A DNA stretch of 64,000 bases from Candidatus Latescibacterota bacterium (GCA_965243025.1 CBDETY010000003.1:4224001-4288000); one strand, 5' to 3'; shown: positions 12,438-37,771, counted from the stretch's first letter. Program-made: numbers and translations. Notes: generated by a model not told the origin, from the sequence alone.

Positions 12438-12652
12438 CCTTACTGACCTTCGGGCCGTGGAATACCGAACTGGAGACCTGCGGCCCTTACAAAAACGATG
12501 TGATTCACGCTCCCATGGCTGTCCTTTCGGTTTCAGTGGGATGGTGACTCTGCCGGAATGTCACCGACAGATGGGACTGGGGACCGGCCGTGGATCCTGC
12601 CCGGCTCCCGTTGCATGTGCCTATAGTGTATTCCGCTGGATTAAAAAAGCAA
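12438..12652 (-). promoter_or_regulatory. Transposase promoter (TTGCTT...TACACT) and conserved structured leader
   Basis: Homologous to 44043-44257, 45624-45830 and 57260-57464. Confidence 0.55.
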
Positions 12653-13486
12653 GTCGGCTTTCGGAGAATTCAAAAACCCCGTAATAGCGACGGTAAACTT
12701 TAGTTTCTGGAAGGGGAGGAGGGGGCGGCACGGAAGGGGAGGGCGAGGAGGTCGGCGGGGGGTGCAGGAAGGCCCGATTCAAGGGGGATGGGCATCCAGA
12801 CGATCCCCGGGGGCTGAAGCCGGGGTGTAGCGGTCCCCGGCAACCGGCGAAAACGGAGTCGCGCTACGAGGCGGAGAAGACCGGGGGTCTGCGGATAATC
12901 GAGAGGACGCGGAAGGAGGCGCTTCGGAGGGGCAAAGATTCTGAAGCGGTCAATCGCCGGGTTATCCGAAAGATTTCAGGATCGGCGGGTCGAGGTGCAG
13001 CTGCGGAACTACGAGGCGAGGGTATCCCGCAAGCTGGCGAACCGGCAGGCCGTGAGCTCCCCTGAGGGTCGACGCTGGGAAGAGGGTATTTTCCCGTAGC
13101 GTAGGGAATACAGAAGCCGACGATTCGGGAGGGATCCTCTCGTTGCCTTTGCACACCCCCCTTGGGAAATCGGCACGGTGGATCGGAGCCCCCCGGCTTC
13201 TGAACGAGGAGGGGGTCTCAGTCCGGGATCGGTGTTCCTGGGGGATTCAGGGAACAGGGTGTCGAGGGTGCCGGCTGCCCGGAACTACGAGGCGAGGGGT
13301 ATCCCCTTCCCTGAAAGCCTGGCGAACCGGCAGGCCGTAAGTGCCCCCTGGTACGGTCCTTGCAGGACTACGCTGCGAAAAAGGGGGTATTCTCCTGCGG
13401 AGAATACTGAATGGAGGCAGCGGGCAGCGGGATTGTCAAGAACGGTTTAAAGTTGACAGTTCCAACGGTTTAAAGTGGACACTTTT

Positions 13487-20000: not shown

Positions 20001-23000
20001 TAGACGGAGGCCACGCCGGCAACCACAAACACCGTGTACTGGGTGCCTACCGTCAGATTCGGAATCACATGGCGTGTACCGCTGGTCACCTCGGCTAGGC
20101 GGGAGGCGTCGAAATCCTGCGTGCCCGATTTCCAATAAACTCTATACATCGTGGCGTCAGGGACTGCCTTCCAGGATACCGTGAGGGCTTCTACGCCGGC
20201 AGCCCGCACGTTGGTTACCTGGCCCGGCTGCGGAGTGCCCGTGGCCGGAGCGGAAGCCGGTCCATCGTCGGCGTCTCCGGTCTCGATTATTGTAGCAATC
20301 ACCTGAATTGTGTATTCGATGCCTGCCGTCCGACCGCCAAGGCCAATCGAAGTATGACTGAAGCCAGGGTCGTCGCCGACTTCAATCAGCGCTTGGCGGT
20401 TCGTTTCGTCGTAGTCCTCGTCCCCCGACTTCCACTGCACCTTGTAGCCGGTGGCGCCCGTGACCTCGTCCCATGCTACGGAGAGATGGTACGGGCCGGG
20501 AGTTACCATCACGTTCGCGACCTGGCCCAGACGATCCGTCGGAGTCCCGAAGGCCTCATCCGAATCCGGTCCGTCGCCCGTGGAAAGGACAGCTATTACC
20601 CGTACCGTGTATTCGGTGTCCGGTTCCAGATCCGGAATCGTATAGCTCAAACCGGTCACTTCTTCTTCGCGGTCGTCGGTTGCCGCATTCGCGAACGTCT
20701 CCGATCCCGACTTCCACTGCACCTTGTAGCCGGTGGCGCCCGGGACCATGCTCCACGATACCGCGAGCCGCTCCGGGCCGGGGTCCACCATCACGTTCGC
20801 GACCTGGCCCTCAGCCACCGGCACCGGAGTGCCTGTTGCTTCGTCTGAAGGATCGCCGTTGCCGCTCGCATTGTAGGCGATCACCTGCACCGTGTACTGG
20901 GTCGCGGGGTCCGCCGTCAGACCCTCAATCGTATACCTCGTCCCCGTAATATCCGTGGCTTCGCGGTTGTCGGTTGCGGCATCCGCGAACGTCTGCTGAC
21001 CCGACCTCCACTGCACCGTGTAGCCGTCGGCCCCGGTAACCTCGTCCCACGACAGCAGGAGCTTCTCCGCCCCGGCCACCACATTCACGCTTGCCACCTT
21101 GCCCGGCAACGGCGTGCCTGTGGCTTCGTCTGAGGGAGCGCTGTCGTCGGTCTCCGGGGTGTTGGAGTTGCTCAGGTCCAGAGTGGCGATCACCTGCACC
21201 GTATACTCGGTGTCCGCCGAAAGGCTTTCGATGGTGTAACTCAGACCCGTCCTCCGGCCTTCGCGGGTTGCCGGGTCGTAGTCCTCTGACCCCGATTTCC
21301 ACTGGATCTTGTATCCAGCCGCCCCCGGGACCGCCGTCCACGATACCGTGAGCGCCCCCGAGCCGGCAGTCACCGTCACCCCCGTCACCGTGCCCGGCGC
21401 AGGGGTGCCTCTTTCTAGATCCGAGGCCGCCCCCAACCCGCCTGCGTTGGAAGCGAAAACCTGCACCGTGTACTGGGTGCCTGCGATCAGATTCTCAATC
21501 ACATAACCGAACCCATCTTCCAGCGTATAACTGGGCGCATCTTCCAGGCGCGCCGTTCTGGTGTCGGCCGCATCATCACTATCAAGCAAGTTGTCGAAAT
21601 CCTGGCTCCCCGACTTCCACTGCACCGTGTAGCCAGTGGCGCCCGGGACCAATTCCCACGTCACCTCGAGCTGCTGCGGGCCGCGAGTCACCGTCGGGTC
21701 CACCTTGCCCGGCAACGGGGTGCCGGTGACTTCCTCTGAGGGCGGACCATTACCTACAGTTTCGGTTGCGTGTTTGGCGTAAACCTGCACCCAGTACTTC
21801 TGACCCGGAGGCATCAGCATGCCAGGACCACGCAGGTCCGTCATTGTTAATGTTACCATCGTAGGTGGCGTTGCACCTGCAGCGACGTCTTTCATCCTTG
21901 ACCGGGAGCTGTACTCCTGCGAATCCTCCCTCCACTGCACGGTGTATCCATCAGTGGCTCCCGGTTCGGCATCCCACGATACGTCGAGGGTCCCCTGGCC
22001 GAGGGCTACCCTCACGTTCTCCACCTGGCCCGGCGCAGGAGTTCCTGCGACCCCGGTTGAAGGATCTCCTTCCGCGTCCCCGGCCAAGGTAGCAATCACC
22101 CGCACCTGGTACGCGGTTCCCCCTATCAGATCCGGAATCGTATAGTTCCTTGAGGATGCGGACACCGTCTTCTGGTTGGTGCCTTCGGTGGCTGTGAAAG
22201 GATCTGGGAACGATGCTTCCGTCGTCCACTGCACCTTGTATCCAGTGGCATTCGGGACCGCGTCCCAGGTCACCTCGAGCGCTTCCGAGGCGGATGTCAC
22301 CTCCACCTGCACCACCATATTATTTGTCGATGCTACCGGGGTGAAAGGCGAGCTTGCTGATGCCTGTCCATTGCCTCCTTTGGTTGTTGTGGCGTAAACC
22401 TGCACCGTGTAATTAGTGCCCGCCGTCAGCCCCATAATCCTATAGGAAGGGTCACCAGTTTCCGGCTGGTCAATCGTGGCCTGGCGGGTCTGGTCGTAAT
22501 TCACCTCCGTCGCCAACTTCCACTGCACCGTGTAGCTATCTGCCCCTCCGATCCGGGTCCATCCTACATTGGCCCCCCAGGCATATTCTGCGGTAGCGGT
22601 CACAGTCAGCGCCCCCACCTGGGCCGGCTTCGGGGTGCCTGTGGCATCGTCTGAAGGCGTGCCGTCGTCCGTCGCCGGGTCGTTGTTGGTGGGATCGCTG
22701 GTGGCAATCACCCGCACCGTATACTCGGTTCCCGCCGTCAGGCCCGTCGTAATCGTATGGCTCGTTGCGGTCACCGTTGCTTCGTTGGTGCCGTCGATGG
22801 GTGTGAAATCATCCGCATCCCAAGAGGCAACGCTAGTCGCATCCCTCCACTGCACCTTGTATCCAATTCCAGTTCCAGAAACCGCCCTCCACGATACCGT
22901 AAGCTGCGCCGCGGCCTCGGAAGTCACCGTCACTCCCGTTACCTGGCCCGGCTTGGGTGTTTCTGTGGCCTCGGCTGAGGGCGTGCCGTCCCCGCTCGTG

Positions 23001-26000
23001 TTCATGGCGATCACCCGCACCGTGTACGGGGTGCCCGCCGTTAAACGAGCGGAAATCTCATGACTGGTTTCGGTTCCCGCGACCACGTTTTGGCGGGTCC
23101 TCGGGTCCCAATCCTGGGTTCCCGACTTCCACTGCACTTTGTAGTTATCAGCCCCCGTCACCTCCCCCCACGCCACGGTGAGCTTCCCCTCACCGGGAGT
23201 CACGGGGCGCACGGGGGGATCTGCGGTTAGATCCTGAGTAACGAGAATCACCTGGCCCGGCGCCGGCATGCCTGTGGCGTCGGCTGAGGGTGCACCGTCC
23301 CCGCTCGCGTTTACCGGGACCACCCGCACCGTGTACTCAGTGTCCGCCGACAGACTTGGAATCGTATGGGTCGTTGCGGGTGCGGTCACCGTTGCTTCGT
23401 TGGTGCCGTCGGTGGGTGTGAAATCATCCGCACCCCAAGAGGCTACCTCCGGATCCCTCCACTGCACCTTGTAGCTGGTGGCGCCCGTGACCGCGTCCCA
23501 TTCCACCGTGAGCTGCTCCGGGCCGGGAGTCACCGTCGGGGTTCCCACCATGCCCGGCTCCGGCGTGCCTGTGGCGTCGCCTGAGGGTGTGCCGTCGCCG
23601 CCAGGATTGAAGGCGATCACCCGCACCGTGTACTCGGTGCCCCCCGTCAAACTACCAATCGTATATTCCGGGTCATCGAGACCATCGGTCACCGTTTTTT
23701 GGTTGGTACCTTCGGCCGGTGTGAAATTAGCCGCAGTCCAATCGCTATTAACACTCGCATCCCTCCACTGCACCTTGTAGCCGGTGGCCCCGTCAACCGG
23801 TTCCCATTCCGCCTTGAGCTCCACCGAGCCGGGAGTCAACGTCACGGTTCCCACCGTGCCCGGCGACGGCCTTCCTGTGGCCTCGGCCGAGGGGTCGCCG
23901 TCGCCGCCAGCATTGTAGGCGATCACCCGCACTCGGTAGAGGGTACCCCCCAGAGCCGTGTCCAAAGCAGGCGACGTGCCATCACCAATTGTCGTCGTCG
24001 CCGTACTCGCACCGGTCTCCACGACTTGACGGCTGTCGGGGTCCCAATTCTCTGACCCCGTCCTCCACTGCACCTTGTAACCGGTGACACCATCTAACGC
24101 GACCCAATTCACCGTGAGCTGTCCGGCCTGGCCGGTAGTGGCCTCCGCAGTCACGCCCGTCACCTGGCCCGGCTTGGTCCACCCGTCCGTAAACGGGGAA
24201 GCTTCTCCAGCCGCCCCGCCCACCGTAGCAGTCACCTGCACCGTATACTGGGTGTTCTCACTCAGGCTCCTGATCGTATACCGCGTACCGCGAATCCCTG
24301 AAGTAGCCTCGCTGTCGTCGGTAAACGCGGAGAGGTCTCCCTCTTCCCACTCTACCTTGTAGTCGGTGGCCCCGGTGACCGCGACCCAGTCCACCGTAAG
24401 CTGCTGCGAGCCGGGAGTCACCGTCACGCCCGTTACCTGGTTGTTCCCCGGGGGTCCCGGGGTTGCAGAAACTTCTGAGGGCGCCCCATTGCCCCCATCG
24501 TTTGTGGCTGTGGCGTACACCTGCACCGTGTGCGCGGGGCGCCCCAGCCCCGTAATCCTATGCGAAGGATTTTCCCCAGTGGGGGTCTGGTCGATCACCT
24601 TGGTGCGGGTCCCGGGCCCGGTCCCGTCGTAATTCACCTCCGTCGCCAACTTCCACTGCACCGTGTAACTCTCTGCCCCCTCCAACCGGGTCCATGTTAC
24701 CGTAACCTCCCCCGGTAGGGCGGGAGTAGACTGGGCCAAGCCCTGCACCGGGCCCGGCTTCGGGGCGCCTGTGGCGTCCTCTGAAGGCGTGCCGTCGGCT
24801 AGAAAAACGTCCTCGACCGCAACTGCGGCCGCATCGTGTGTGGCAATCACCCGCACCGTGTACTCGGTGCCCACCGTCAGAGGCGTTGAAGGAGAAATCG
24901 TATAGCTCGTTGCGGTCGCCGCTGCTTGGTTGGTGGCGTCGGGTGTGAATGCATCCCAAGTTGCAACACTAGTCGCATCCCTCCACTGCACCTTGTATTC
25001 AATTCCAGTTCCAGAAACCGCCGTCCACGATACCGTAAGCTCCGCCGCCGCGTCGGAGGTCACCGTCACCCCCGTTACCTGGCCCGGCTGCGGAGTGCCT
25101 GTGGCGGTGGCTGAGGGCGCGCCGGGGCCGCTCGTGTTCATGGCGAACACCCGCACCGTGTATTCGGTGCCCGCCACCAGATCACGCGTAATCTCATGAC
25201 TGGTTGCGTCCTGGTCTTCCATGCCTTGGCGGTCGCTCGGGTCCCAGTCCTGCGTCCCCGACTTCCACTGTATTTTGTACTCATCGGCCCCCGTGACCGC
25301 CTGCCACTTCACGGTGAGCTTTTCCTCACCGGGTTCCACCGTCAAGGCATCGGTATCACTGGTTTCATCCGGGCCGTTCACTTGGCCTGGCCTCGGCCTG
25401 CCTGTGGCGTCGTCTGAGGGCGTGCCGTCGCCGCCGTTGCTGGCGTCGGTGTTGTCGCCGTTGGTGGCGATCACCCGCACCGTGTACGTGTTCTCCGCCG
25501 ACAGACCTCCAGTAGTCGCCGTAATAGTATGGCTATAGGTTGTTGGGAGTGGGTCAGAGGTCGACGCGGCCACCGTTTCTTCGTTGTCCGGGTCCGTTCC
25601 GTCATCGTCGGGCTCGAAATCCTCCCAAGAGTCTACCTCATCCGGATCCCTCCACTGTACCTTGTAGTTAGTGGCGACATCTAACCCGTCCCAGGTCACC
25701 GTGAGCTGTCCCGCGGCGGCAGGAACGGTCACCGTCACGCCCGTCACCTGGCCCGGTGCCGGCGTGCCAGTGGTGGGCGTAGGATCAGTACCACCGGGCC
25801 CATCGGGATCATCCGAGGGATGGCTGTAGTCGCCGTACATGTCTTTGGCGAAAACCCGCACCTGATACGTGACGGCCGGATCCAGTCCCGAGATTATTTC
25901 CTCATATTTCATCTCCGTCCCAGCTTCAATGACCCGCTGGCGTTCGGCATCCCAAGCTTCATCTGGATCAGTATCAGCATCATCTCCATCGGCGGCATTC

Positions 26001-26194
26001 CTCCACTGCATCTTGTAGCCGGTTGCCCCCTCTACCTTGGGCCACTCCACCGTGAGCTGCTCCGGTCCGGATTTCACCGTCACTGTTGGAGGAGCAAACT
26101 GCGCTTGCAGCCCCCTTGGGAGAAACGAAATGGCCAGCAAGACGAGCATTCCCCCTCGCAACCATTTCATGGATACTTGGTGGCTATTTTTCAT
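17024..26194 (-). CDS. Giant secreted fibronectin type III repeat protein (3057 aa) with C-terminal FlgD-Ig/sorting domain
   Basis: Signal peptide (..LPRGLQA/Q), about 21 repeats of LTVxW..GATGYKVQW..YTVRVIA, Pro/Thr linker, NYPNPFNPETTIKY...KMLLLK tail; AGGAG RBS before ATG 26194. Confidence 0.9.
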   Translation of the reverse strand: MKNSHQVSMKWLRGGMLVLLAISFLPRGLQAQFAPPTVTVKSGPEQLTVEWPKVEGATGYKMQWRNAADGDDADTDPDEAWDAERQRVIEAGTEMKYEEIISGLDPAVTYQVRVFAKDMYGDYSHPSDDPDGPGGTDPTPTTGTPAPGQVTGVTVTVPAAAGQLTVTWDGLDVATNYKVQWRDPDEVDSWEDFEPDDDGTDPDNEETVAASTSDPLPTTYSHTITATTGGLSAENTYTVRVIATNGDNTDASNGGDGTPSDDATGRPRPGQVNGPDETSDTDALTVEPGEEKLTVKWQAVTGADEYKIQWKSGTQDWDPSDRQGMEDQDATSHEITRDLVAGTEYTVRVFAMNTSGPGAPSATATGTPQPGQVTGVTVTSDAAAELTVSWTAVSGTGIEYKVQWRDATSVATWDAFTPDATNQAAATATSYTISPSTPLTVGTEYTVRVIATHDAAAVAVEDVFLADGTPSEDATGAPKPGPVQGLAQSTPALPGEVTVTWTRLEGAESYTVQWKLATEVNYDGTGPGTRTKVIDQTPTGENPSHRITGLGRPAHTVQVYATATNDGGNGAPSEVSATPGPPGNNQVTGVTVTPGSQQLTVDWVAVTGATDYKVEWEEGDLSAFTDDSEATSGIRGTRYTIRSLSENTQYTVQVTATVGGAAGEASPFTDGWTKPGQVTGVTAEATTGQAGQLTVNWVALDGVTGYKVQWRTGSENWDPDSRQVVETGASTATTTIGDGTSPALDTALGGTLYRVRVIAYNAGGDGDPSAEATGRPSPGTVGTVTLTPGSVELKAEWEPVDGATGYKVQWRDASVNSDWTAANFTPAEGTNQKTVTDGLDDPEYTIGSLTGGTEYTVRVIAFNPGGDGTPSGDATGTPEPGMVGTPTVTPGPEQLTVEWDAVTGATSYKVQWRDPEVASWGADDFTPTDGTNEATVTAPATTHTIPSLSADTEYTVRVVPVNASGDGAPSADATGMPAPGQVILVTQDLTADPPVRPVTPGEGKLTVAWGEVTGADNYKVQWKSGTQDWDPRTRQNVVAGTETSHEISARLTAGTPYTVRVIAMNTSGDGTPSAEATETPKPGQVTGVTVTSEAAAQLTVSWRAVSGTGIGYKVQWRDATSVASWDADDFTPIDGTNEATVTATSHTITTGLTAGTEYTVRVIATSDPTNNDPATDDGTPSDDATGTPKPAQVGALTVTATAEYAWGANVGWTRIGGADSYTVQWKLATEVNYDQTRQATIDQPETGDPSYRIMGLTAGTNYTVQVYATTTKGGNGQASASSPFTPVASTNNMVVQVEVTSASEALEVTWDAVPNATGYKVQWTTEASFPDPFTATEGTNQKTVSASSRNYTIPDLIGGTAYQVRVIATLAGDAEGDPSTGVAGTPAPGQVENVRVALGQGTLDVSWDAEPGATDGYTVQWREDSQEYSSRSRMKDVAAGATPPTMVTLTMTDLRGPGMLMPPGQKYWVQVYAKHATETVGNGPPSEEVTGTPLPGKVDPTVTRGPQQLEVTWELVPGATGYTVQWKSGSQDFDNLLDSDDAADTRTARLEDAPSYTLEDGFGYVIENLIAGTQYTVQVFASNAGGLGAASDLERGTPAPGTVTGVTVTAGSGALTVSWTAVPGAAGYKIQWKSGSEDYDPATREGRRTGLSYTIESLSADTEYTVQVIATLDLSNSNTPETDDSAPSDEATGTPLPGKVASVNVVAGAEKLLLSWDEVTGADGYTVQWRSGQQTFADAATDNREATDITGTRYTIEGLTADPATQYTVQVIAYNASGNGDPSDEATGTPVPVAEGQVANVMVDPGPERLAVSWSMVPGATGYKVQWKSGSETFANAATDDREEEVTGLSYTIPDLEPDTEYTVRVIAVLSTGDGPDSDEAFGTPTDRLGQVANVMVTPGPYHLSVAWDEVTGATGYKVQWKSGDEDYDETNRQALIEVGDDPGFSHTSIGLGGRTAGIEYTIQVIATIIETGDADDGPASAPATGTPQPGQVTNVRAAGVEALTVSWKAVPDATMYRVYWKSGTQDFDASRLAEVTSGTRHVIPNLTVGTQYTVFVVAGVASVYGQPSDEVTGTPTRRRPSTPSTPSTPTPQPPTTPPAQPTTPPVTTAPKDPKPGKVVLSSVKAGAEGGQLAVKWRVMAKASGYKVQWKSGDQDFSSSRQARVSGMLAVNHVIGDLDYTIEHMVRVIAYNQHGDGPPSDSREATPKRGVPKNNLAIEDPDEARTVGQAISLTVSVAEEGAHVLEVTGGRGVTLSGDGVTDQGGGSAQLDADSWSEGQRTVVLNDTVGPDVLSIVLRNTDGDSLAGLSGIMYNPGEASQLVVTGLPDTLAVGRAYRGQVSATDSYGNVRTEDREVTISTDARNVSSSSPVELEEGTGGFWVRSDEVPATALVLTFEDSEDSDLSSSVSVTVRPLDAPDRVVAADNPGDEGGFVLLTWDLSDDHSILDTYRIFRGEGSAREWGSVAAAPGATEGRAVVATLDTMSSVWGVLGQIGGSSMMDDMACMADIVVTGSDVDGLEVLVWRTGSGNRVSSPRSSNILWKGTTDATGQVSLSVNNSGRTSSYAATARRDGELVASWRGIQLTPSDCPSLELAIGGEATVGGATDQRPSVVLMSSITQSGSARAIDNTPPAAAGSFRAVDVPDDDGGQIQLSWTESTSDVSITRMVEGAVGPVTSDMSRGVVGYRIYREEAEGFALLGTVGPGVTGFVDTTAITGIRFTYVVSAFDQDNETVSEEEEAMSIRNREEDVNGKLIQGLFGADKTVGFDDYFHFADHYGSSVEDTEWEPAFDLAAKQAVDIDGYNVFAENFGRQTASAAKVIPLEPGRNEQTRLDFFGGVPLPRVGEEFVLTLHLSDFGLLKGYGFQVEFDGEELEVVRAVAADNGLGEGILANPQVLAVAEGKQAIVAYGDEVSEGTVAVELVFRALREFEDGWIRITEGQVRDGAFAVNPLVLPAPVQMETLPEVYALGFNYPNPFNPETTIKYALPQASDVKLVVYNSIGQVVRTLVNERQSIGRYVFTWDATNDRGQAVSSGIYLYRLQAGEFAQVRKMLLLK

Positions 26195-26709
26195 CAGAAC
26201 AGTCCTTCTCCTTTGAGAAAACCGCATCTTCACACGGTTCGGACGAGGGTAGATTTTCGATATGGTGGGTTAAACGAACTATTGGCATGTCACGATTCTT
26301 AAAAGTAAGGGGCATTCTGCCATGGAGTCAAGCTTTTCGGGTGAGTCTTGTTGATGATTGAAGCATCTGAACCAATTACATATTACATATTCATATGTTC
26401 TTAACCGGAGAAATCGTGGCTTCCTTCTGTGTAAAAGAACCAAAGATCATTCGGGAATGTCAAGCTATTTTTGTGTCGATCCGAAACAGGCTGAACCCTT
26501 TCCGAGGGCGTCCCGCAAGGCCCCAAAAAGTTGCATGCGAAGAAAAAGTGCCCGATTTTCGCCGTCGCGTCAACATCTGGCCCCCCAAGGCGTCCTGAAC
26601 AGGCGGGGCCGCGGTTCGGCTGTTCCGCCGCCGGTTTTGCCCCTGACCTGATTATTCAATAAGAGCACGAAGGACCAAATAGTAAAGGACGAATAGGACG
26701 AATGGGATA

Positions 26710-27918
26710 ATGGATGATCTTTTCGAATCCCTGTTGGACGGATGCGCCGAGGGTTCCTCTGCGGACGGCATCTGCATCGACACCGAGCTGGAGCCGCTGA
26801 CCGGCCCGGGCGGGCCGGTCAAGCCGGCGGTATACGCCGGCGGCAGGTATCAGCAGGACCGCCGCTGGGCGAGCCCGGAAGCGGCCGAATCCACGCCGGT
26901 GCTGGTGATCGACAACGTGCCGTCGCAGGCCAACCGCCTGGAAGAGGCTTTGCAGGACCGCAACCGGGAATCGCCCTTTTTCCCGGAACTGGTCCTGGAT
27001 CTGTCCTGCGTGGCGCCTCTGCCGGCGCATCTGCCGCGCCGGCTTTCGAGTCTGGAGTTTCCCCACCGCAACGCGGATGCCTACCTGCGGGACGCCCGGC
27101 TCGAGGGCGTCGATTTCCTCCGAACCGACCTCGGGCGAGCGATTTTCGCGGCGACCCCGCAGGAGTGCGGAGCGCTGATGGCCTGGTTTCCGCAGGCGTT
27201 GCTGTTCGGCTTCTGGCAATCGCATCTGGGCAGGAAGCGGCACAGCACCAAGCACGCGCGGTCCTGGGTATCGGAGATCGTGGGCTGGAATCCGGGCGCG
27301 GTGGACACCCGGCTGCTGGGCATGAAGGGCGACCCGTTGAACCTGAACACCGACCAGGCGATCACCTCCAACCCCAACGACCGGATGAGCTGGGAGATCG
27401 GGGAGGGGGCCGCGGTAACGGGGGGCCGTAAGGACAAGCTGTCGGAGATCGGCCACGGCCGGGTGCCGTTCATGGGGGAGGAGGAAGCCGCCGCCGGGCC
27501 GGTGTCGTTTGCGCGGGTGACCCAGCGGGCAACGGTGTCGTTTGCGCAGCTTCGAAAGGTCGGTCTGGGCCCGGACCGGGCGGCGGCGGAACAGGCGGCG
27601 CGGGCGCTGCTGGTGGCCGTGGGGCTGTATGCCCACCTGCGGGCCTTCGGCCGGGGGTTCGCGCTGCGTTCCGGGGCCGAGTTGCGGCCCCGGGAAACGG
27701 CGGCGACGTGGCTGGGAAGCGACGGGGACGAGCCCTGCGCGATCGGCCCCGTCGAGGCCGCCGAACAGCTTTTGAGGCAGGCGCACGAGCACGCCGGGGC
27801 GGCCGGGGTGCCCCTGGACGGCTGGGGCCGGCCCCCGGTTCTGCTGACCCCGAAAAAAAACCTTCACGCCGCGATCCGGGCTACCTGGCCGGACTTCGAC
27901 GACAACGGGGGGACCTGA
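26710..27918 (+). CDS. csb1: Type I-G (I-U) Cas7 / Csb1
   Basis: VKPAVY, IDNVPSQANRLE, PHRNADAYLRD, LLFGFWQS, LSEIGHG, ALRSGAEL. Confidence 0.88.
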   Translation: MDDLFESLLDGCAEGSSADGICIDTELEPLTGPGGPVKPAVYAGGRYQQDRRWASPEAAESTPVLVIDNVPSQANRLEEALQDRNRESPFFPELVLDLSCVAPLPAHLPRRLSSLEFPHRNADAYLRDARLEGVDFLRTDLGRAIFAATPQECGALMAWFPQALLFGFWQSHLGRKRHSTKHARSWVSEIVGWNPGAVDTRLLGMKGDPLNLNTDQAITSNPNDRMSWEIGEGAAVTGGRKDKLSEIGHGRVPFMGEEEAAAGPVSFARVTQRATVSFAQLRKVGLGPDRAAAEQAARALLVAVGLYAHLRAFGRGFALRSGAELRPRETAATWLGSDGDEPCAIGPVEAAEQLLRQAHEHAGAAGVPLDGWGRPPVLLTPKKNLHAAIRATWPDFDDNGGT

Positions 27919-27922
27919 CCCG

Positions 27923-29344
27923 ATGCTGGCCGTCTCGGTGGAGTTGCTGCACGGGACCTTCCGCGCCGACCCGGACGGCAGCGCCGGCACCGGCCGCCTG
28001 GGGCGGGGCGAGTGGCCTCCGGCCCCGGCGCGCCTGTTGGCGGCCCTGGTCGCCGCCGACGGCACCGGAGCCCGCTGCCGGGGAACCGACGGGTCGGAAC
28101 TGGCCTGGTTCGAGGCCCTGCCGCCGCCGGTGATTTACGCGCATGGAGCCCCCTGGCATCAGGACCTAGAGCCCCGGTTTGTGGTCAAGCAGCACGGGGG
28201 GGCGGTAAAATCCACGTACCGGGAGTATGTGGGCCGCGCCCCCGTCGAGGTCCGGCCCGGGGTGCGCGTCACGCCGCGTTGGCCTCGGATCGTGTACCTG
28301 TGGCAGGCACGGGCGCCCGGGGCGATGCTGGCGGCGCTGCGCTACCGGGCCGCGCGCATCGGCTATCTGGGCGCGGCCGACTCGCCGGTGCGGGTTCGCG
28401 TTGAGACGCAGCCGCCCGATGGCCCGCCGGAGGACCCCTTCGTCGCGGCCGGCGACGGCGACGTACCGATCCGGGTTTCGGCCCCCGGCGACGTGGCCCT
28501 GCTCGACGGGATCTACCATGCCTGGTGCGAGCACGGGGCCGAGGTCGCCCGGTCCCGGTTCCCGGGGTTGCGCCACGAGCAATGGTACCGGTCGCCGCGG
28601 TTTGCGGACCGACCTGCCCCCCCGGTGGCCGCCTGGCTGCGCTTGGCCGAAGCGCTTCCGGGCCGTCGCGTGGCGGCGCTCACGGCCCTGTTCAAGCGGG
28701 CCGTTCTCCGGCAATACGAGGAGCTGTTCGGGGAGCCGCCGGCGGTGTTGCACGGCCATGGATTCCCCACAAAAGGCTTCGAGCTGGCCCGCTACCTGGC
28801 CCTTGCCGATGCGGGGTATGCCCGCTCGACCGGACGCATTCACGGCCTGGCGCTGTGGCTGCCGTCCGGACTGGATTCGGGCACACGCCTCAAGGCGCGC
28901 GATGCGGCCTGTGCCCTCCGACGGCTGACCGGCGGGGGCCTGGACGTGTCGGTGGCGCCGCGAGAGGACGAGCCCCGGCCGTGGGCCGCCCACCCTAACC
29001 GCTGGTGCGGTTCCGCCCGCCGGTGGGCGACGGTCTTTCCGGCGATTCACGAGCGGCGGGGCCGGCTCGATCTGGCCGAACTCACCCGCTGGTGCCGCCA
29101 TGCCGGGCTGCCGGGCGGCCCGGTCGCGTTCCGCACCGGGCGCGCCCCGCTGGTGCGCGGCGGCATCGATCTGGCACCGCCGGAAGTGAACCGCCCGGGC
29201 CGACCCGGCCAGCCCGGACTGCTCTACTCCCACCTCGAGCTGTTGTTCGAAGAACCCGTGGCCGGCCCGGTGGTCATCGGCGCCGGGCGGCAGCGCGGCT
29301 TCGGGCTGTGCGTGCCGGTTTCGGACAAAGCCGGACCCGGCTGA
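27923..29344 (+). CDS. csb2: Type I-G Cas5/Cas6 fusion Csb2
   Basis: EWPPAPARLLAALVA, GYLGAADS, C-terminal Cas6 G-loop GPVVIGAGRQRGFGLC. Confidence 0.88.
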   Translation: MLAVSVELLHGTFRADPDGSAGTGRLGRGEWPPAPARLLAALVAADGTGARCRGTDGSELAWFEALPPPVIYAHGAPWHQDLEPRFVVKQHGGAVKSTYREYVGRAPVEVRPGVRVTPRWPRIVYLWQARAPGAMLAALRYRAARIGYLGAADSPVRVRVETQPPDGPPEDPFVAAGDGDVPIRVSAPGDVALLDGIYHAWCEHGAEVARSRFPGLRHEQWYRSPRFADRPAPPVAAWLRLAEALPGRRVAALTALFKRAVLRQYEELFGEPPAVLHGHGFPTKGFELARYLALADAGYARSTGRIHGLALWLPSGLDSGTRLKARDAACALRRLTGGGLDVSVAPREDEPRPWAAHPNRWCGSARRWATVFPAIHERRGRLDLAELTRWCRHAGLPGGPVAFRTGRAPLVRGGIDLAPPEVNRPGRPGQPGLLYSHLELLFEEPVAGPVVIGAGRQRGFGLCVPVSDKAGPG

Positions 29345-32061
29345 TGCGATCGACGTTTGGCGAATTCTACCGGGCCCTGTACGGCCGCGAGCCGTTTCCC
29401 TGGCAAGCGCGACTGGCTGCCCAGGTCACCCAAACCGGGGACTGGCCCGACGAGATCGGCATCCCGACCGGGCTGGGCAAGACGGCGTGTCTGGACTTGG
29501 CCGTGTGGTGGCTGGCGCTGCAGGCCGAACGCGCCCCCGCCCGCCGCACGGCCCCGACCCGGATCTGGTGGGTGGGCGACCGGCCGCTGCTGGCCGAGAA
29601 GGCCAGCGACCGGGCCGAGGCCCTCAGCGCCGCGCTCCGCGAGCCGGCCACCGAGGCGGTCGCCGCCGTCGCCGACCGCCTGCGCTCGCTGCCCGCCGAC
29701 CCGGCCGGCGACCCCCTGGAGGTGATCGAGCTTTCCGGCATCGCCTCGCCCCGGCCGGCCGACCCGTCCCAACCCGCGGTGATTCTGTCCTCCCTTTCCC
29801 TGTACGGCTCCCGGTTGCTGTTCCGCGGCTACGGGACGACGCGGTCGATGCGCCCCGTCGAGGCCGCCCTGGCCGGCACCGACAGCCTCGTGTTCCTCGA
29901 CGAGACGCCCAGGGCCGCCCCCCTGCGGGGAGCCCTGGTGCCGGCCCTGGGCGAGTGCACGCCCCGGGCCCAGGCCGTTCTGGGAACGCCCCGCTCCCGG
30001 CCGCGATTCGTGGCCCTGACCGCCACCGGGGGCACCGGGGGGGAGGGCCGCTTCGGTCTGGATGCGGCCGACGAGGCGCATCCGGTCGTGAAACGGCGGT
30101 TGAATGCAGCCAAGCCGATGGACGTACGCTGTTGCCCGGACGACGTCGGAAGGACGTTGGCCGCCGAGACGCTGCATCTGGCCCAACAGGCGGCGGGGCC
30201 GGCGACGTTCCTGGTATTCGCCAATACCCCGGCGACGGCCCGGTCGGCGTTCGACCGCCTTCGAGACCGGCTGGCCGGCGAAGCGGCCGAGATCCTGCTG
30301 GTGACGGGCCGGTCCCGGCAGCGGGAAGCCGAACGGACGCGGCGCTTCCTCCTCGATCCGGACCAGGGCCTGTTTTCCTCCCGAGCCGCCGGGCCCCGTC
30401 TGCGTCACCTGATCGTGGTGGCCACCCCGGTTCTGGAGGCCGGGGCCGACCTCGACGCGGAGTACCTGGTCACCGAAGCCTGCGGGGTGCGGGCGCTCAC
30501 GCAGCGGCTCGGCCGCCTGAACCGGCTGGGCCGTTTCCGCCACGCCCGCGCCGTCTACGTCCATCCCGACGCCCGGGAATGCCCGGTCTACGGGGCCGAA
30601 CCGGCGCAGGTGCTGCACCGGCTGCAACAGGCCGGCGCGGGCGACGAGGCCCCCGTGAACCTGTCGTCGCGCCGCATCGCCGGCGTGTTGGGCTCCCCCG
30701 AAGACGATCCGGGCCGGGCCCCGGAGGTGTTGCCCGCCTTGGTGTGGGAATGGACGAAAACCGCCACGCCCCCCCAGGGCGAAGCCCCCGTCGAACCCTA
30801 CTTCGCCGGCATCGCCGGTACGCAGTACCGGGTGTCGCTGCTGTGGCGCGTCCATGTCCCGGGGCAAGGCCAGTACCTCTGGCCGCGGCTCGATGCGGGC
30901 GAACTCGTCGAGGTGCCCCTGGACGAGGCGCGCGAGGCGTTGGAGGAAACCGAAGGACTCCGGCGCCTGGGACCCGACGGGGTATCGGTGGAGGTCGTTT
31001 TCAAAGAGGCCCTCAAGCCCAGCGACGTGGTCGTGCTGCCGTTCGACCGCGGCCTGCTCGACGAGTTCGGCCAGTGGAATCGGCACGCCCGCCTCCCCGT
31101 CGCCGATTTGTCCATCGCCCGGCACGGGTTGCCCCTAAGCCGGACCGCGCTTTGGGGCCTGTGCGGCCTGTCCCTCCCGCAAAAGCTCATCGACCCGGTC
31201 GCAGGCATCGGCCCCGACCACGAGGCCCTCGACGAGGCTGACCGCATCGAGGCGGCCGACAAGATCCTGGATTTGGCGTCCCTTGCCGACCCTCCCCCCG
31301 GATGGCAGGACAGCCGGTGGCAGGGGTTCCTCGCCCGTTTGAAGAACCGGCCCCCGGTCGCCCCGCCCAAAGAGGTGCCCCGGGTGCCCCTGTCCGTGGA
31401 GCCGGAACCTTGCAGCGACGAGCTCGACGAGCTGTCCCTGGCCGAACAGGCCGTCCGGCTCGATGTCCACGGCCTGGCGGTAGGGGAGCGCGCGGGGGCC
31501 ATCGCCGAGCGCCTCGGCCTGCCGGCCGGTCTGGCCCGGACCGTGGAACGGGCCGGACGCCTGCACGACCTCGGCAAGGCCGACCGCCGCTTCCAGCGCT
31601 GGCTCGATCCCGGGGCGCACCACGACACCCCCCAGGCCAAGGCCCCCCTGCCGCGCCATCGCTGGACCGCCGCCCGGGCCGCCGCCGGATGGCCCCGCTC
31701 AGGCCGCCACGAAGCCCTGTCGGCACGGCTGGTTCAGCAGGGGCTCAAACAGGCCACCCAGGGCGATCCGGTGCTGGAAGACCTGCTCCTTCATTTGGTC
31801 GTCAGCCATCACGGCCACGGCCGCCCCCTCGTGCGGCCCGTACCCGACGAGACCGCCGGCCGCGTGTCCGGAGACGTCGAACACGCCCACCATGCGGTGT
31901 CGGCCGACCTGTTCCACGTCGATTGGGAACAGCCGACCCGGTTCAAAAAACTCAACGACCGGTTCGGGCCGTGGGGGCTGGCCCTGCTGGAAACCATCGT
32001 ACGGCAAGCCGACCATGCGGTGTCGGCCGGGACCCGAACAGGCCGCCTCGAGGTGCGCTGA
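29344..32061 (+). CDS. cas3: Type I-G Cas3 (N-terminal helicase, C-terminal HD), motif II atypical
   Basis: PFPWQ, IPTGLGKT, GSRLLFRGYG, FLDETP, QRLGRLNR; HD motifs LHDLGKAD, RHE, SHHG, ADH. Confidence 0.9.
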   Translation: MRSTFGEFYRALYGREPFPWQARLAAQVTQTGDWPDEIGIPTGLGKTACLDLAVWWLALQAERAPARRTAPTRIWWVGDRPLLAEKASDRAEALSAALREPATEAVAAVADRLRSLPADPAGDPLEVIELSGIASPRPADPSQPAVILSSLSLYGSRLLFRGYGTTRSMRPVEAALAGTDSLVFLDETPRAAPLRGALVPALGECTPRAQAVLGTPRSRPRFVALTATGGTGGEGRFGLDAADEAHPVVKRRLNAAKPMDVRCCPDDVGRTLAAETLHLAQQAAGPATFLVFANTPATARSAFDRLRDRLAGEAAEILLVTGRSRQREAERTRRFLLDPDQGLFSSRAAGPRLRHLIVVATPVLEAGADLDAEYLVTEACGVRALTQRLGRLNRLGRFRHARAVYVHPDARECPVYGAEPAQVLHRLQQAGAGDEAPVNLSSRRIAGVLGSPEDDPGRAPEVLPALVWEWTKTATPPQGEAPVEPYFAGIAGTQYRVSLLWRVHVPGQGQYLWPRLDAGELVEVPLDEAREALEETEGLRRLGPDGVSVEVVFKEALKPSDVVVLPFDRGLLDEFGQWNRHARLPVADLSIARHGLPLSRTALWGLCGLSLPQKLIDPVAGIGPDHEALDEADRIEAADKILDLASLADPPPGWQDSRWQGFLARLKNRPPVAPPKEVPRVPLSVEPEPCSDELDELSLAEQAVRLDVHGLAVGERAGAIAERLGLPAGLARTVERAGRLHDLGKADRRFQRWLDPGAHHDTPQAKAPLPRHRWTAARAAAGWPRSGRHEALSARLVQQGLKQATQGDPVLEDLLLHLVVSHHGHGRPLVRPVPDETAGRVSGDVEHAHHAVSADLFHVDWEQPTRFKKLNDRFGPWGLALLETIVRQADHAVSAGTRTGRLEVR

Positions 32062-32065
32062 CCCC

Positions 32066-32968
32066 ATGCAGAAAGCCCGTGAGAGGTGTCCGGGGTTGCC
32101 CGGCTTTTGGATCAACGGCTGGCTGGCGGCGGTGGGAACCACGGTGCTGAACCCGCGAATCCGGCTGGGCTGGACCGAAGAAGGCGCGCCCCGGGCGCTG
32201 CTGTCCTGCCCGCCGCGCCTCGACCCAGTCGAGGCCCTCGCCGCCGCCTGGCCCGACGCCGAACAGATAGCCGGGCTGCCGATCGCCGAACAGTGGCAGC
32301 ACACCCCCCCCTTGCAGCGCAAGGTTTCCCTGGAAACCTTTGCCCAGCGTGCCCGCGCCGCCCGAGGCCACCCCCAGGCGTGGGCCCTGTCGTCGACCCT
32401 GACCGATCTCTGCGTCGACGAGAACGGCCAGGTCGCCCATGCCCCCTTCGATCCGGCCGGGCCCGGATCCGTCAAGTGGCTGCATCACCGACTGAAGAAA
32501 GTGCACGCCCTGGGGGACCCCGACCGCATCGCAGACTCCTTGGCCGGCAGGGGAAACCGGGTCAAAAACCACGGCCTGGGATTCGATCTGACCCGGCTGG
32601 GCTCCCTGTCGGATTCGACCTCGGCATGGGTCGATCCGGTAATCGAGGTGCTGGCCTTCTTCGGCCTCGCCCTCCTGCCGGTGCGCGGAGCCGGGACCGA
32701 CCGGCGCAGGGCTTTTCCGGCTCCGGCCCGCGAAATCCAGAAAGGATGGGTTGCGGAAAACCGGTGGGAGCGCCGCTTCACCTGGCCGGCATGGCGCCAG
32801 CCCCTGGACAGCACCGGCATCGATGCGCTGCTGGACGCCTGGATGACCGTCCGCAACGACAAAAACCAGTGGCCGACCATGGGAGTGCATGCCGCATGGC
32901 AGACCGTACAGTTCAAGCCCAGAGGCACCGCCGACATTACCCGGGCCTTTGGCGCCGAGCGAGTGTGA
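32066..32968 (+). CDS. Type I-G large subunit (Cas8u2/Csb3-like)
   Basis: Directly after cas3; NGWLAAVG, DPVIEVLAFFGLALLPV, FTWPAWRQPL. Confidence 0.7.
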   Translation: MQKARERCPGLPGFWINGWLAAVGTTVLNPRIRLGWTEEGAPRALLSCPPRLDPVEALAAAWPDAEQIAGLPIAEQWQHTPPLQRKVSLETFAQRARAARGHPQAWALSSTLTDLCVDENGQVAHAPFDPAGPGSVKWLHHRLKKVHALGDPDRIADSLAGRGNRVKNHGLGFDLTRLGSLSDSTSAWVDPVIEVLAFFGLALLPVRGAGTDRRRAFPAPAREIQKGWVAENRWERRFTWPAWRQPLDSTGIDALLDAWMTVRNDKNQWPTMGVHAAWQTVQFKPRGTADITRAFGAERV

Positions 32969-32997
32969 AGAAATTCCAGGGGCAGGCAAAGCCCCGT

Positions 32998-33187
32998 GTC
33001 GCCGGAAGAGGAAAACCCCCGGTCTTTGTTGAGCGGATTGTCAAGCCCTTTTTTCACCCCAGCCCACCGGGGTCGTCGCCGGGGTCGATCCCCCGGCCTT
33101 CGTTGAGCGGGTGTCAAGCCTTTTTTTAGCTGAGGCCCTCACCGGGTCCCGTCGCCGGGGAGGATCCCCCCCGGCCTTCGTTGAGCC
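32998..33187 (+). CRISPR. Degenerate mini-array: 3 repeats, 2 spacers
   Basis: Repeats GTCGCCGG(G/A)...CCCCCGG(C/T)CTT(C/T)GTTGAGC at 32998-33035, 33075-33109 and 33151-33187 with a CCGG(GG)/(CC)CCGG stem; spacers 39 and 41 nt; 29 bp after the last cas gene. Confidence 0.8.
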
Positions 33188-33826
33188 GCTCGAAGAACAC
33201 CCCCCCTTTGGAGATGGGAAGAATTGCCGCCGGTCCCCCGGATCGGACCGGGCCATCGAGGTGCGCGACCCTTCGGTGGTCCCCTTTGAGGAGATCGAGG
33301 AGGTGGTTTCGATTCGAGTCGGTCCGGGACGTGGTGCAGGAACTCTGCAAGGTGCACCAAGAGTTCTCCCTGGCCGAGTTTCGCTCCCGGTTCCTGCATT
33401 ATTTCAAGGACGCCAGCCTGGAAGCCCAAACCCGGCACCGTATCAGCGACAAAGCCTACGAGGTGGGCCTGCTGGGCCTGCGCAAGATCGGGGACCTGAA
33501 GTTCATGGGCGACGAGGACCCGCCCAAGTGGGGAGATTCCGCAGACTGAAGTGATTGAACGTGAGGTGGGGATGGATCATGGCGGATGGATAAAGTTGGC
33601 CACCCGACTAACAATCCGAACCCGAGAAGGGCAAAGTGCAGCCCCGATATGACAATCATCGAAGCTTCTCGTTTGGCGGAAATCAGGCGGATCCTTACCA
33701 GCTAAAGGATAGGCGCAACGCATTGCACCTACCCCCTGGTCGGCATCTACCGGCTGCGCCAGTGGTTCAGGACGATCTGAATCACCTCCAGCGCGACTTC
33801 CAGCAGAATCGCCAACCATCGTGGCA

Positions 33827-36055: not shown

Positions 36056-36493
36056 TCAGAGAATCCCGAGCTCCTTCATGGACACGCTTTCGCCAGCAGG
36101 AGCGACGACGACATGATCGAGCACCTGAATCCCCATAAGGCCACCTGCCTCGACAAGACGGTGGGTGAGATCGATGTCTTCCTTGGATGGGGCCGGATCT
36201 CCGGAGGGGTGGTTATGGGCCAGTATGATGCTGGTGGCTCCCTTCAGGATCGCTGCCTTGAACACCTCTCGGGGATGGACCAGAGAAGCGTTCTGGCTGC
36301 CGATGGAGGTCGTCTCATGCGCGACTACGCGATTGCGCGTGTCGAGGTGGAGGACGACGAACACCTCCCGGTCGGCTGAGACTATGTCGAGGGTATCCAG
36401 GTAGGCGAGCACCTCGTTGGGACTGGTGAGCGGCTCGGAGCATACGTCCTGCCAGATTTGCCGCACCTTGCGTTCTACGACTTCGAGTTTCAT
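36056..36493 (-). CDS. radC: RadC-like JAB domain protein
   Basis: REVFVVLHLD, VHPREVFK, AHNHPSGDPAPSKED, LDHVVV. Confidence 0.88.
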   Translation of the reverse strand: MKLEVVERKVRQIWQDVCSEPLTSPNEVLAYLDTLDIVSADREVFVVLHLDTRNRVVAHETTSIGSQNASLVHPREVFKAAILKGATSIILAHNHPSGDPAPSKEDIDLTHRLVEAGGLMGIQVLDHVVVAPAGESVSMKELGIL

Positions 36494-36832
36494 CGGGTTC
36501 CTTTCATTATATAGAAGGCTACTCTGACTGATTGAGGGGGTGTGGGGCGCTTCGGCAGCCAGTGTGACGAGCCGGCTGCACTCGTTTCGACCCTCCTTCC
36601 CCCAGCCCGGGAGTCGAAGCCGGGTGGGGGGGGACATCGGAGAACGGTTTTCAGGACGGAGGAACCGGCGAAGGATTCAGGCCGAGGACTGTTTCGGAAG
36701 CATCCTCAGCCGGCAAGGATCAGATGATTTCGAGTTGATCAGGCGGGGTCCAACCACCCGGCTGGAGGCAAACTCTCCGAATTATCCAGGCAGGTGCCCC
36801 CTGACCGCTTCGATCAGACAGGGAGCCCCGGA

Positions 36833-37144
36833 CTACCGCACCGGAACCAGCGAGGATACCAGATCGTTATACACCTGAAGGAGGGCCTCTTTCGCCCTGG
36901 CCTGTGCCTCGTCGGAGCTGATTTCGGGGGCATCATGGTACACCAGCATCGTCAGCTTTTCCTGGCGCGGATAGATTTCGAAGTCGAAAGAGGGTCCCGG
37001 CTGAAGCGGCGGCTGGTAGAGGACCAGGACCACCTCCACCTCGGTAACGTACTTCCCTGCCGGCGGGGCGAAGATGCCGTCTGCGAATCGGTTGGGGTTC
37101 ACCCTCTCCGTCTGGCCCGGGAGGGCACGGATTCGTTCGGTCAT
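36833..37144 (-). CDS. Hypothetical protein
   Basis: AAGGA RBS; MTERIRALPGQ...; divergent from the SWIB-DnaJ gene. Confidence 0.45.
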   Translation of the reverse strand: MTERIRALPGQTERVNPNRFADGIFAPPAGKYVTEVEVVLVLYQPPLQPGPSFDFEIYPRQEKLTMLVYHDAPEISSDEAQARAKEALLQVYNDLVSSLVPVR

Positions 37145-37174
37145 GGCAAGTCCTTTTCTTTGAAGGGGGAGATT

Positions 37175-37771
37175 TTGGAGCGGCTGCTGCAGCCGTCTGA
37201 AGAACTGGCTGCCTTGGTCGGGCACGAGCCGATGTCACAGGCTCAGGTCGTCCAAGAACTGTGGGGTTACATCCGGGAGAACGGGTTGCAGGACCCGGGG
37301 AATCCGCGAAGGATCAAGGCCGACGACCATCTCGGGAGGATCTTCGCGGGCAAGGATCGGGCGACCCTTGTGGAGTTGGCCAAGCGGGTCAGCAGACACC
37401 TGATGGCCGGCGCTCAAGGCGAACAGGCAGAGGAGGAAGTGCTCTGGAGGGAGTTCGAAAAGGAGATGCTGGCGTCGTGTTTCGAGACGCTGGGATGCTC
37501 GCCGGAAAGGTCCGACGAGGACCTGAAACGGGAATTCAGGGAGCTATGCCAGGAATATCATCCGGACAGGCTGGCCGGCGAGGAGATTCCCGCGGGTATC
37601 ATCAGGCTGGCGGAGGAAAGGTTTCAGGAGATTCAGAGCGCGTACGAAGTCGTGGTGAAATCCCGGACCCAATCCTCGTCCGCCCCTACCCGTCTCTGGA
37701 CCCTGGGAGAGCTTTTGAAACTAGCGGATCCCCCGGCATCTTGCGAACCTGAAGGAGGGATGGCCCGATGA
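37175..37771 (+). CDS. SWIB/MDM2-domain plus DnaJ-domain protein
   Basis: PSEELAALVG..VVQELWGYIRENGLQDP..IKADDHL (SWIB), then LGCS..EYHPDRL..EERFQEIQSAYE (J domain); TTG start after GGGGGAG. Confidence 0.78.
   Translation: MERLLQPSEELAALVGHEPMSQAQVVQELWGYIRENGLQDPGNPRRIKADDHLGRIFAGKDRATLVELAKRVSRHLMAGAQGEQAEEEVLWREFEKEMLASCFETLGCSPERSDEDLKREFRELCQEYHPDRLAGEEIPAGIIRLAEERFQEIQSAYEVVVKSRTQSSSAPTRLWTLGELLKLADPPASCEPEGGMAR

Follow-up and report, generated by a model that had tools for sequence, protein, structure and literature searches.

A derived variant of the type I-G CRISPR-Cas system, adaptation-less and with a putative short Cas8g-like subunit, lies at positions 26,710 to 33,187 of a 64,000-nucleotide stretch of DNA from a Candidatus Latescibacterota bacterium (GCA_965243025.1, CBDETY010000003.1:4224001-4288000; the whole stretch is referred to as the window). 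The locus is carried by an IS1595 composite transposon and ends in a mini-array of three degenerate repeats and two spacers. Judged from sequence, the spacers are a duplicated pair of guides with a seed that resembles the promoter of the giant surface-protein gene family next to the operon, and this promoter is their most likely candidate target. It is tentatively proposed that the locus no longer serves adaptive immunity and may be kept as a degradation-impaired, fixed-guide, RNA-guided DNA-binding module. An original prediction had described a transposon-borne, adaptation-less type I-G Cascade with three degenerate repeats, whose spacers mirror promoter boxes and which might act on a whole class of strong promoters; the structural part of this description largely stands, whereas the class-wide action finds no support.

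The cas operon

Four genes make up the operon:

26710-27918, plus strand: csb1 (cas7g), 402 amino acids (aa); PF09617 at E 3.8e-33 and TIGR02570 at 60.4 bits (cut-off 38)
27923-29344, plus strand: csb2 (Cas5-Cas6 fusion), 473 aa; TIGR02165 over its full length at E 1.8e-48 and 166 bits (cut-off 45)
29344-32061, plus strand: cas3g, 905 aa, with a C-terminal HD domain; TIGR02621 at 546.5 bits (cut-off 400)
32066-32968, plus strand: 300-aa protein of the "Cas3-extension family", short Cas8g-like by fold; NF049934, AlphaFold and Foldseek

The genes are co-oriented and tightly packed, with stops and starts that overlap or adjoin (the cas3g ATG at 29344 overlaps the csb2 stop codon), and all four open reading frames (ORFs) are intact. 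Pfam and NCBIfam profiles agree with the predicted csb1-csb2-cas3 of type I-G. The fourth gene, predicted to be cas8u2, has as its sole NCBIfam match NF049934, "type I-G, Cas3-extension family", with a score of 64.5 bits (cut-off 65). The Csx17 profile matched neither this protein nor any other across the genome, and a positive control for Csx17 was equally silent. Proteins of the NF049934 type are represented by 246 cluster representatives at E<=0.001 in a library of 1.84 billion proteins. An AlphaFold model built from an alignment of 101 sequences (predicted local distance difference test, pLDDT, 94.9; predicted template-modelling score, pTM, 0.93) had a single Foldseek match at E<=0.001, a 649-residue chain of the type I-G CRISPR effector 8b2x (E 1.1e-4, TMq 0.57), which by its length would be Cas8g; the next matches were large subunits of I-B and I-A Cascades. 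On this model, the 300-aa protein is probably a short Cas8g-like subunit by fold and, by hidden Markov model (HMM), is not assigned to the Csx17 family, so that the cas8u2 label was roughly right in role and apparently wrong in family.

Loss of the adaptation module

No match to Cas1, Cas2 or Cas4 profiles was found in the whole 6.8-Mb genome (96% complete), and positive controls for all three families were detected; the absence of adaptation genes predicted for the element thus extends genome-wide. A k-mer scan for spaced repeats detected no second CRISPR array in the genome, its 15 candidate loci all being tandem repeats of whole units, 76-98% matched across their entire period. The mini-array sequence is unique in the genome.

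Intact relatives of the locus are found in two genomes, G001 of the same genus and G047 of another genus, in unrelated chromosomal contexts. Both carry the same four genes at 57-72% aa identity in the order csb1-csb2-cas3-ext-cas4-cas1-cas2-leader-array, and their arrays are long, with the 37-nt repeat GTGTCGCCGGGGTGAACGCCCCGGCCTTCGTTGAGCG or a 3-nt variant thereof. From G047 and G001, 47 and 24 spacers were recovered (71 in total), mostly 34-38 nt in length and unrelated to each other. By comparison with these relatives, cas4-cas1-cas2, the leader and nearly the whole array are gone from the window locus; where identical repeats and diverse spacers would make up an ordinary array, it has only three degenerate repeats with two spacers homologous to each other. 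The relatives' arrays themselves end in progressively degenerate repeats (1, 1, 1, 2, 2, 4 and 7 differences at the array end in G047; 4 differences in the final G001 repeat), so degeneracy need not mean a long time since deletion. The cas genes of G001 and G047 are closer to each other (74-80% aa identity) than either is to those of the window (59-72%), and the closest database Cas3 is only 62% identical to the window Cas3; the window module lies on a long branch, possibly after horizontal transfer. In G001, the N-terminus of the short Cas8g-like gene (L014, about 5840-5920) is read in two frames with one TAG reported, a possible frameshift or assembly error.

The mini-array and its predicted processing

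The mini-array starts 27 nt past the stop codon of the 300-aa gene, has no leader of its own and comprises the following features:

32996-33035, plus strand: repeat R1, degenerate, with a weak hairpin (-7.1 kcal/mol)
33036-33072, plus strand: spacer S1, 37 nt
33073-33109, plus strand: repeat R2, with a hairpin (-15.7 kcal/mol), then CTTC, then the 8-nt handle GTTGAGCG
33110-33148, plus strand: spacer S2, 39 nt, between the two well-formed repeats R2 and R3
33149-33187, plus strand: repeat R3, with a hairpin (-17.5 kcal/mol), CTTC and the handle GTTGAGCC with its last base changed
33188-33700, plus strand: tail of the cas-specific insert, unique in the genome, holding an ORF at 33214-33554

Tandem Repeats Finder (TRF) reports the array at 33016-33186 with a period of 74, 2.2 copies and 80% matches; the boundaries of R1-R3, S1 and S2 were set by the authors and not by TRF. 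The three repeats match the 37-nt repeat of G047 at 32/41, 33/38 and 31/39 aligned columns, which indicates that they are true homologues of the relatives' CRISPR repeat. R1 is the worst preserved, so that degeneracy is not graded towards the distal end. R2 and R3 form a 7-bp G+C hairpin that is as stable as in canonical repeats (about -17 kcal/mol), and both retain the spacing of 4 nt between hairpin and 8-nt handle. Such a layout agrees with type I-G processing as published in PMC9638904, where Csb2 cleavage occurs 4 nt 3' of the hairpin and produces a handle of 8 nt.

Aligned to each other, S1 and S2 are identical in 16 of the first 20 columns and in 13 of the remaining 21. The spacers are therefore homologous, meaning that a repeat-spacer unit was duplicated and that they were not independently acquired. 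The reverse complement of their 5' parts is an A-tract followed by GGCTTGACA with no -10 element at 17 nt, as had been predicted. Spacers acting as promoters themselves were rejected, since no -10 is found at 16-18 nt on the minus strand. A reading of the array as a terminator or other structure was also rejected (fold z-score 0.50; no terminator-like site in 32969-33200), and an Rfam search gave two sub-threshold chance matches only.

The mini-array is covered by contigs in sequencing runs from four studies with few differences. Run X5 yields an identical 860-nt contig over it, the contig of run X6 has 7 substitutions and 6 gaps across 32210-33408, and that of run X7 has 2 substitutions and 3 gaps across 32460-33751. 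Directly 3' of the mini-array, inside the cas-specific insert, the ORF at 33214-33554 would encode 113 aa and has no Pfam or NCBIfam match; the X6 contig departs from the window at 33408, within this ORF.

Spacer likeness to the promoters of giant surface-protein genes

The intergenic region upstream of the operon and the gene beyond it contain these features:

17024-26233, minus strand: gene for a 3069-aa, repeat-rich, giant surface-type protein, divergent from the cas operon
26260-26272, plus strand: 13-bp repeat ATATGGTGGGTTA, exactly where homology to a cas-less paralogous locus flips orientation
26324-26340, minus strand: promoter-like site A, reverse complement AAAAGCTTGACT, followed by 17 nt and TTACTT, directed towards the giant gene
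26458-26473, minus strand: promoter-like site B, reverse complement CAAAAATAGCTTGACA, a second intergenic copy

Four paralogues of the giant gene, for repeat-rich proteins of about 3000-3200 aa, are located in the genome at C3:234781, C3:4241024-4250233 (equal to window 17024-26233), C3:5937695-5947288 and C3:6035585-6044863. The three that were read, all but C3:234781, have a common 25-residue C-terminal tail. The window gene is 81% identical to the paralogue at C3:6035585-6044863 over the first 411 residues, and G001 carries a 75%-identical orthologue.

At C3:6035410, about 175 nt upstream of the paralogue of the giant gene adjoining the cas operon, S2 pairs over positions 1-11 and 13-17; its only mismatches there fall at 12 and 18, both flipped positions, and beyond these pairing ceases. 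This is the sole non-self site for S2 in the genome with 12 of 12 seed positions, and the sole one with 16 of the 17 unflipped positions in the first 20. The matched sequence is the -35 and A-tract of a promoter-like element, AAAAATGGCTTGACA followed by 17 nt and TTACTT, which from its pattern of TTGACA, spacing and TTACTT may be an active promoter. Against 2.7 kb of upstream regions of the giant-gene family, the 71 foreign spacers reach 13 at most, and none of 300 shuffles reaches 16. A same-genus relative, which has no mini-array, carries AAAAACGGCTTGAGA upstream of its giant-gene orthologue; the motif is thus a property of the gene family, and it is the spacer that imitates it. S1 pairs with site B at positions 1, 2, 4-11 and 14-18, and its best genome match (24/27) is at C3:5933656, beside a recombinase-like ORF and about 4 kb from the third giant-gene paralogue. 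In that region (C3:5932164-5934203), the ORF, judged tyrosine-recombinase-like by eye from its N-terminal sequence and not by HMM, adjoins 1.1 kb of A+T-rich non-coding DNA, within which lie the S1-like motif and a degenerate copy of the giant-gene promoter core.

Intergenic GCTTGACA sites in the genome often show TTGACA, 17 nt and TAnnnT, and 11 of 15 are co-directional with the next gene; the organism thus uses such promoters. The promoter of a Rho-like gene, so assigned from its N-terminal sequence, is an example of the TTGACA type.

The promoter-like element at the paralogous locus is itself part of a segment that may switch orientation. There, ATATGGTGGGTTA occurs as a perfect 13-bp inverted pair (C3:6035330 and C3:6035547) bounding a promoter-like segment of ~215 bp. 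Relative to the giant gene this segment has opposite orientations in the two paralogous loci, the window copy facing the giant gene, and in the window the distal 13-bp repeat is missing where the cas insert begins. The arrangement of repeats looks like a DNA-inversion switch and would be a candidate for phase variation.

When protospacers were sought, 75 genomes of the family gave no match over 30 nt at <=3 mismatches, IMG/VR gave no exact 20-mer match and a phage collection gave none; the 13 matches in a plasmid collection all lay over query positions 90-138, that is, the G+C-rich repeat R2 and its edges, and are due to chance. Full-length spacer matches to phage or plasmid coding DNA, named in the original prediction as evidence against it, were thus not encountered in these collections. 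Homologous loci with normal long arrays and unrelated spacers, named there to the same effect, do occur in both relatives found and in part count against the prediction, but as G047 and G001 are other species, a lineage-specific repurposing is still compatible with them.

Selection and degeneration of the Cas3 helicase

Pairwise ratios of nonsynonymous to synonymous substitution (dN/dS) against relatives are 0.14-0.35 for all four cas genes. Departures of each protein from the columns invariant in its 119 closest homologues were counted, the other sequences being left out in turn. Cas3 is changed at 17 of 167 invariant columns (other sequences: median 0, maximum 3), Csb1 at 3 of 116 (maximum 3) and Csb2 at 0 of 86 (maximum 2); Cas3 differs from Csb1 and Csb2 combined with Fisher p=0.0003. 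At columns conserved at >=95%, Cas3 is changed at 37/319 against a maximum of 18 in the other sequences, Csb2 at a normal 2/168, and the short Cas8g-like protein at 0/12 (others up to 6). The Cas3 changes fall almost entirely in the helicase half, with 16/113 in residues 1-500, 0/15 in 501-700 and 1/39 in 701-905 (16/113 vs 1/54; Fisher p=0.013). Motif II reads DETPR here and DEAHL in 119 of 119 homologues, while motif V reads TPVLEAGAD in place of TQTLEVGAD, with P at a Q that is invariant in all 119. Walker A, motifs III and VI and all histidines and aspartates of the HD domain (HD, H, HH and DH motifs) are kept.

In a substitution-only neutral simulation of the helicase half, ~114 changes are needed for the observed pattern, and only 13 of 200 runs reach 16 changes without a stop codon, before indels are counted. 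The open frame of cas3 has therefore probably been maintained by selection. As described in PMC9638904, Cas3 is an integral subunit of the type I-G effector, which cannot bind its target stably without it, and mutants of the helicase remain able to bind and nick. The simplest reading would be that the window effector has lost processive degradation yet still needs the body of Cas3.

The composite transposon and its cas-less paralogous copy

The boundaries of the element are as follows, with the inner boundaries of both insertion sequences (IS) approximate:

10627-10634, no strand: target-site duplication CGACGCGA, left copy, 8 bp, from sequence
10635-12770, minus strand: left IS1595-family element, transposase at 11433-12437; PF12762 at E 3.9e-30 and self-BLAST
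57060-59179, plus strand: right IS1595-family element, transposase at 57465-58481; self-BLAST
59180-59187, no strand: target-site duplication CGACGCGA, right copy, 8 bp, from sequence

With two inverted IS copies around the cargo and a single 8-bp duplication outside both, the 48,545 bp of 10635-59179 are an IS1595 composite transposon inserted as one unit. It was rightly predicted to be a transposon but is not Tn7-like. No TnsA, TnsB, TnsC or TniQ is found among the window genes, and a Tn7-like CRISPR-associated transposon was rejected on the lack of Tn7 machinery and the retention of Cas3. The outer 610 bp of the two bounding IS copies (10635-11244 and 58570-59179) are 100% identical and inverted, whereas their transposase parts (11398-12728 and 57182-58503) are only 87% identical, a difference that points to gene conversion or to a mosaic origin. 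The element interrupts an AcrB-family gene (profile positions 1-492 at 9103-10647 and 511-1020 at 59198-60775); this resistance-nodulation-division (RND) efflux pump gene, located downstream of OEP and HlyD-type partner genes at 6470-9080, is presumably inactive. Other transposition genes in the window are further IS1595 transposases (four in all) and an IS21 remnant consisting of a C-terminal IstA fragment (PF22483) with an IstB-like ORF.

A cas-less paralogous copy of the cargo, which is older than the window copy, lies elsewhere in the genome. Window 13434-26272 matches C3:6048675-6035547, with 89% identity over the giant-gene block of ~10 kb and 95-98% over the flanking blocks, and window 33701-41319 matches C3:6034738-6027100. 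Between them, window 26272-33701, comprising the cas operon and the mini-array, is replaced by ~810 bp in the cas-less copy. The motif TGTCAAGC..TTTTT was considered as an att recombination site flanking the cas insert and found unlikely, site B lying ~90 bp inside the homology block and off the junction. A RadC-like JAB gene and a SWIB-DnaJ fusion gene accompany an IS1595 copy in both segments (window 36056-37771 and C3:6030594-6032287).

Proposed mechanism and alternative explanations

If the module is active, the mini-array would be read through from the cas operon, and Csb2 would cut 4 nt past the hairpins of R2 and R3 to give at least one CRISPR RNA (crRNA) with the handle GUUGAGCG, S2 and the R3 hairpin. 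The complex could then bind DNA through ~17 nt of seed-proximal pairing and not degrade it processively; Cas3 would be retained in a structural role, as stable R-loops of type I-G effectors depend on it. Among possible targets, the A-tract and -35 of the promoter-like element before the giant surface-protein genes would be the best candidate; the strongest match is that in the cas-less paralogous copy, where a bound complex would block access of RNA polymerase. The least secure step concerns the identity of the bound promoter and the purpose of binding. One conceivable purpose, judged unlikely, is RNA-guided paralogue exclusion by the transposon, which carries a giant surface-protein gene along with the helicase-impaired effector: the promoter of the resident paralogous copy, which would switch orientation, would be paired by the fixed guide, whereas that of the transposon's own copy would not, and this would act together with the DNA-inversion switch.

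Several observations weigh against such a module. Near-perfect seed sites (>=11 of 12 positions, self included) number 16 for S1 and 9 for S2, against shuffled means of 15.7 and 18.8, and so are not above chance; the predicted action on a whole class of strong promoters finds no support here, while the more general idea of a transcription-control module retains some from the Cas3 changes and the promoter-like match of S2. None of these sites in the host genome (0/16 and 0/9) has the TTN protospacer-adjacent motif (PAM) reported for type I-G of Thioalkalivibrio sulfidiphilus in PMC9638904; TAT/TAC is reported for B. lactis in PMC9335239. The bases at the PAM position are CAT at C3:6035410 and, by inspection, at site A, CGG at site B and CGT at C3:5933653. 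A PAM could not be deduced from the relatives: a search of their arrays against the family returned other arrays only, the 71 spacers gave only short partial matches to this genome, and the G047 array had no match in phages. Since the seed resembles the consensus A-tract and -35, a good match at some strong promoter is to be expected; by hand count the promoter of the Rho-like gene scores 13/17, making the match at the paralogue less surprising than the raw statistics imply. That matched element faces away from the paralogue in this assembly, sites A and B have seed mismatches at position 3 or at positions 1-2, and S1-type matches also occur among the foreign spacers (12 at E<=0.008, from 11 of the 71). 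R1 is badly degraded, and Csb1 is mildly aberrant, with 13/205 changes at columns conserved at >=95% where others reach 7 at most. Cas3 still has Walker A as well as D and E in motif II, so the loss of helicase function is inferred rather than certain. A search for similar mini-arrays with the pattern of handle, G, 1-2 nt and TGTCAAGCC returned 34 metagenome and 15 genome-collection loci, and a CRISPR repeat preceded the match in 0 of 49. In the cell-free test described in PMC9335239, a Bifidobacterium I-G Cascade without Cas3 did not repress green fluorescent protein (GFP).

The main rival is an inert relic, a doubtful but real possibility, in which deletion in an IS-rich region removed cas4-cas1-cas2 together with the leader and most repeats of the array. 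What is left would be degenerate repeats of the trailer type, a promoter likeness without present function and an operon on its way to becoming a pseudogene. The degenerate repeats at the ends of the relatives' arrays, the four IS1595 transposase genes and IS21 fragments of the window, the decayed helicase motifs of Cas3, the aberrant Csb1, the lack of a PAM-compatible target among the near-perfect seed sites and the lack of a homologous mini-array among the 49 pattern matches all agree with it. It accounts less well for four intact and closely packed ORFs, an unchanged Csb2, Cas3 changes confined to the helicase half, a stop codon that few neutral runs avoid, and a worst repeat that is proximal; and the best genome match of S2 adjoins a paralogue of the very gene beside the operon. 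A locus with residual interference, either a minimal transposon-borne defence or an inter-element weapon against an unsampled phage, plasmid or rival transposon with this promoter type, is considered quite unlikely. It would explain the intact HD nuclease motifs and the position of the best S2 match within the older cas-less copy of the same segment family, and adaptation-less CRISPR systems on mobile elements are described in inter-element conflict (type IV-A3). Set against this are the empty protospacer searches of family genomes, IMG/VR, phages and plasmids, a genome match that ends after position 17, and changes in motifs II and V that speak against processive degradation.

Self-service of the CreR/CreTA type, in which crRNA-like RNAs would repress the cas operon promoter or an adjoining small toxin gene and so regulate the system or addict the host, is regarded as very improbable. 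Degenerate-repeat mini-arrays partially matching cas or cargo promoters are described as widespread in PMC10120712, whose Table 1 gives a mini-array in 4% of 235 I-G loci; in addition, site B is located ~240 nt upstream of csb1, and the 113-aa ORF directly follows the array. However, sites A and B face the giant gene and not csb1, the seed pairing of S1 and S2 with them is imperfect, a scan found no promoter-like site on the cas strand, and the known CreR/CreA coexist with a working array, which is absent here. The preferred reading, still tentative, thus remains that of a fixed-guide DNA-binding module impaired in degradation.

Comparison with known systems and implications

The canonical type I-G (formerly I-U) system of T. 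sulfidiphilus, as described in PMC9638904, has in common with the window locus Cas7g/Csb1, Csb2, a Cas3g with C-terminal HD domain that is part of the effector, and a repeat of ~37 nt in which 4 nt separate the hairpin from an 8-nt handle. It differs in having Csx17 of ~650 aa where the window has the 300-aa Cas8g-like protein; the window locus further differs in having no Cas4-Cas1 or Cas2, only three degenerate repeats, and a Cas3 with DETP in motif II and TPV in motif V. The CreR/CreA described in PMC10120712 likewise consist of degenerate repeats around a spacer-like sequence that is partially complementary, in its 5' part, to a promoter, and the proposed outcome of repression without cleavage is shared. 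The window shows both repeat-like flanks beside the cas locus and partial, PAM-proximal complementarity to a putative promoter. In that account, however, CreR/CreA accompany a complete immune system with its array, act on promoters of cas or toxin genes beside a cognate PAM and are conserved among related loci, whereas the window mini-array is the only array, its candidate target is a cargo or paralogue promoter without a known PAM, and no conserved relatives of it were found.

Type IV-A3 plasmid systems, as they are described, share with the window locus a mobile element, the lack of an adaptation module and silencing rather than degradation (here proposed), but use CasDinG and real arrays that acquire spacers in trans, while the window holds an I-G derivative with an altered Cas3. 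CRISPR-associated transposons (I-F3, I-B, I-D and V-K) also carry an effector without adaptation genes and short or atypical arrays; the window element, in contrast, has no TnsA/B/C or TniQ, keeps Cas3 and owes its mobility to flanking IS and not to guided insertion. Non-degrading DNA binders derived from CRISPR systems have been described where Cas3 was lost, as in CRISPR-associated transposons, or swapped, as in type IV. No report of a type I-G effector retaining a Cas3 whose helicase motifs are altered was found in a literature search.

As a relic, the locus would still be a clean case of stepwise CRISPR decay within an IS composite transposon, one that can be compared both with an intact relative and with a paralogous locus lacking cas genes. 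As an active module, it would demonstrate that Cas3 can persist purely as a structural or R-loop subunit, crRNA-like regulation would extend beyond the cas locus to promoters of cargo or host, and a compact I-G variant with a 300-aa large subunit would become available for programmable repression.

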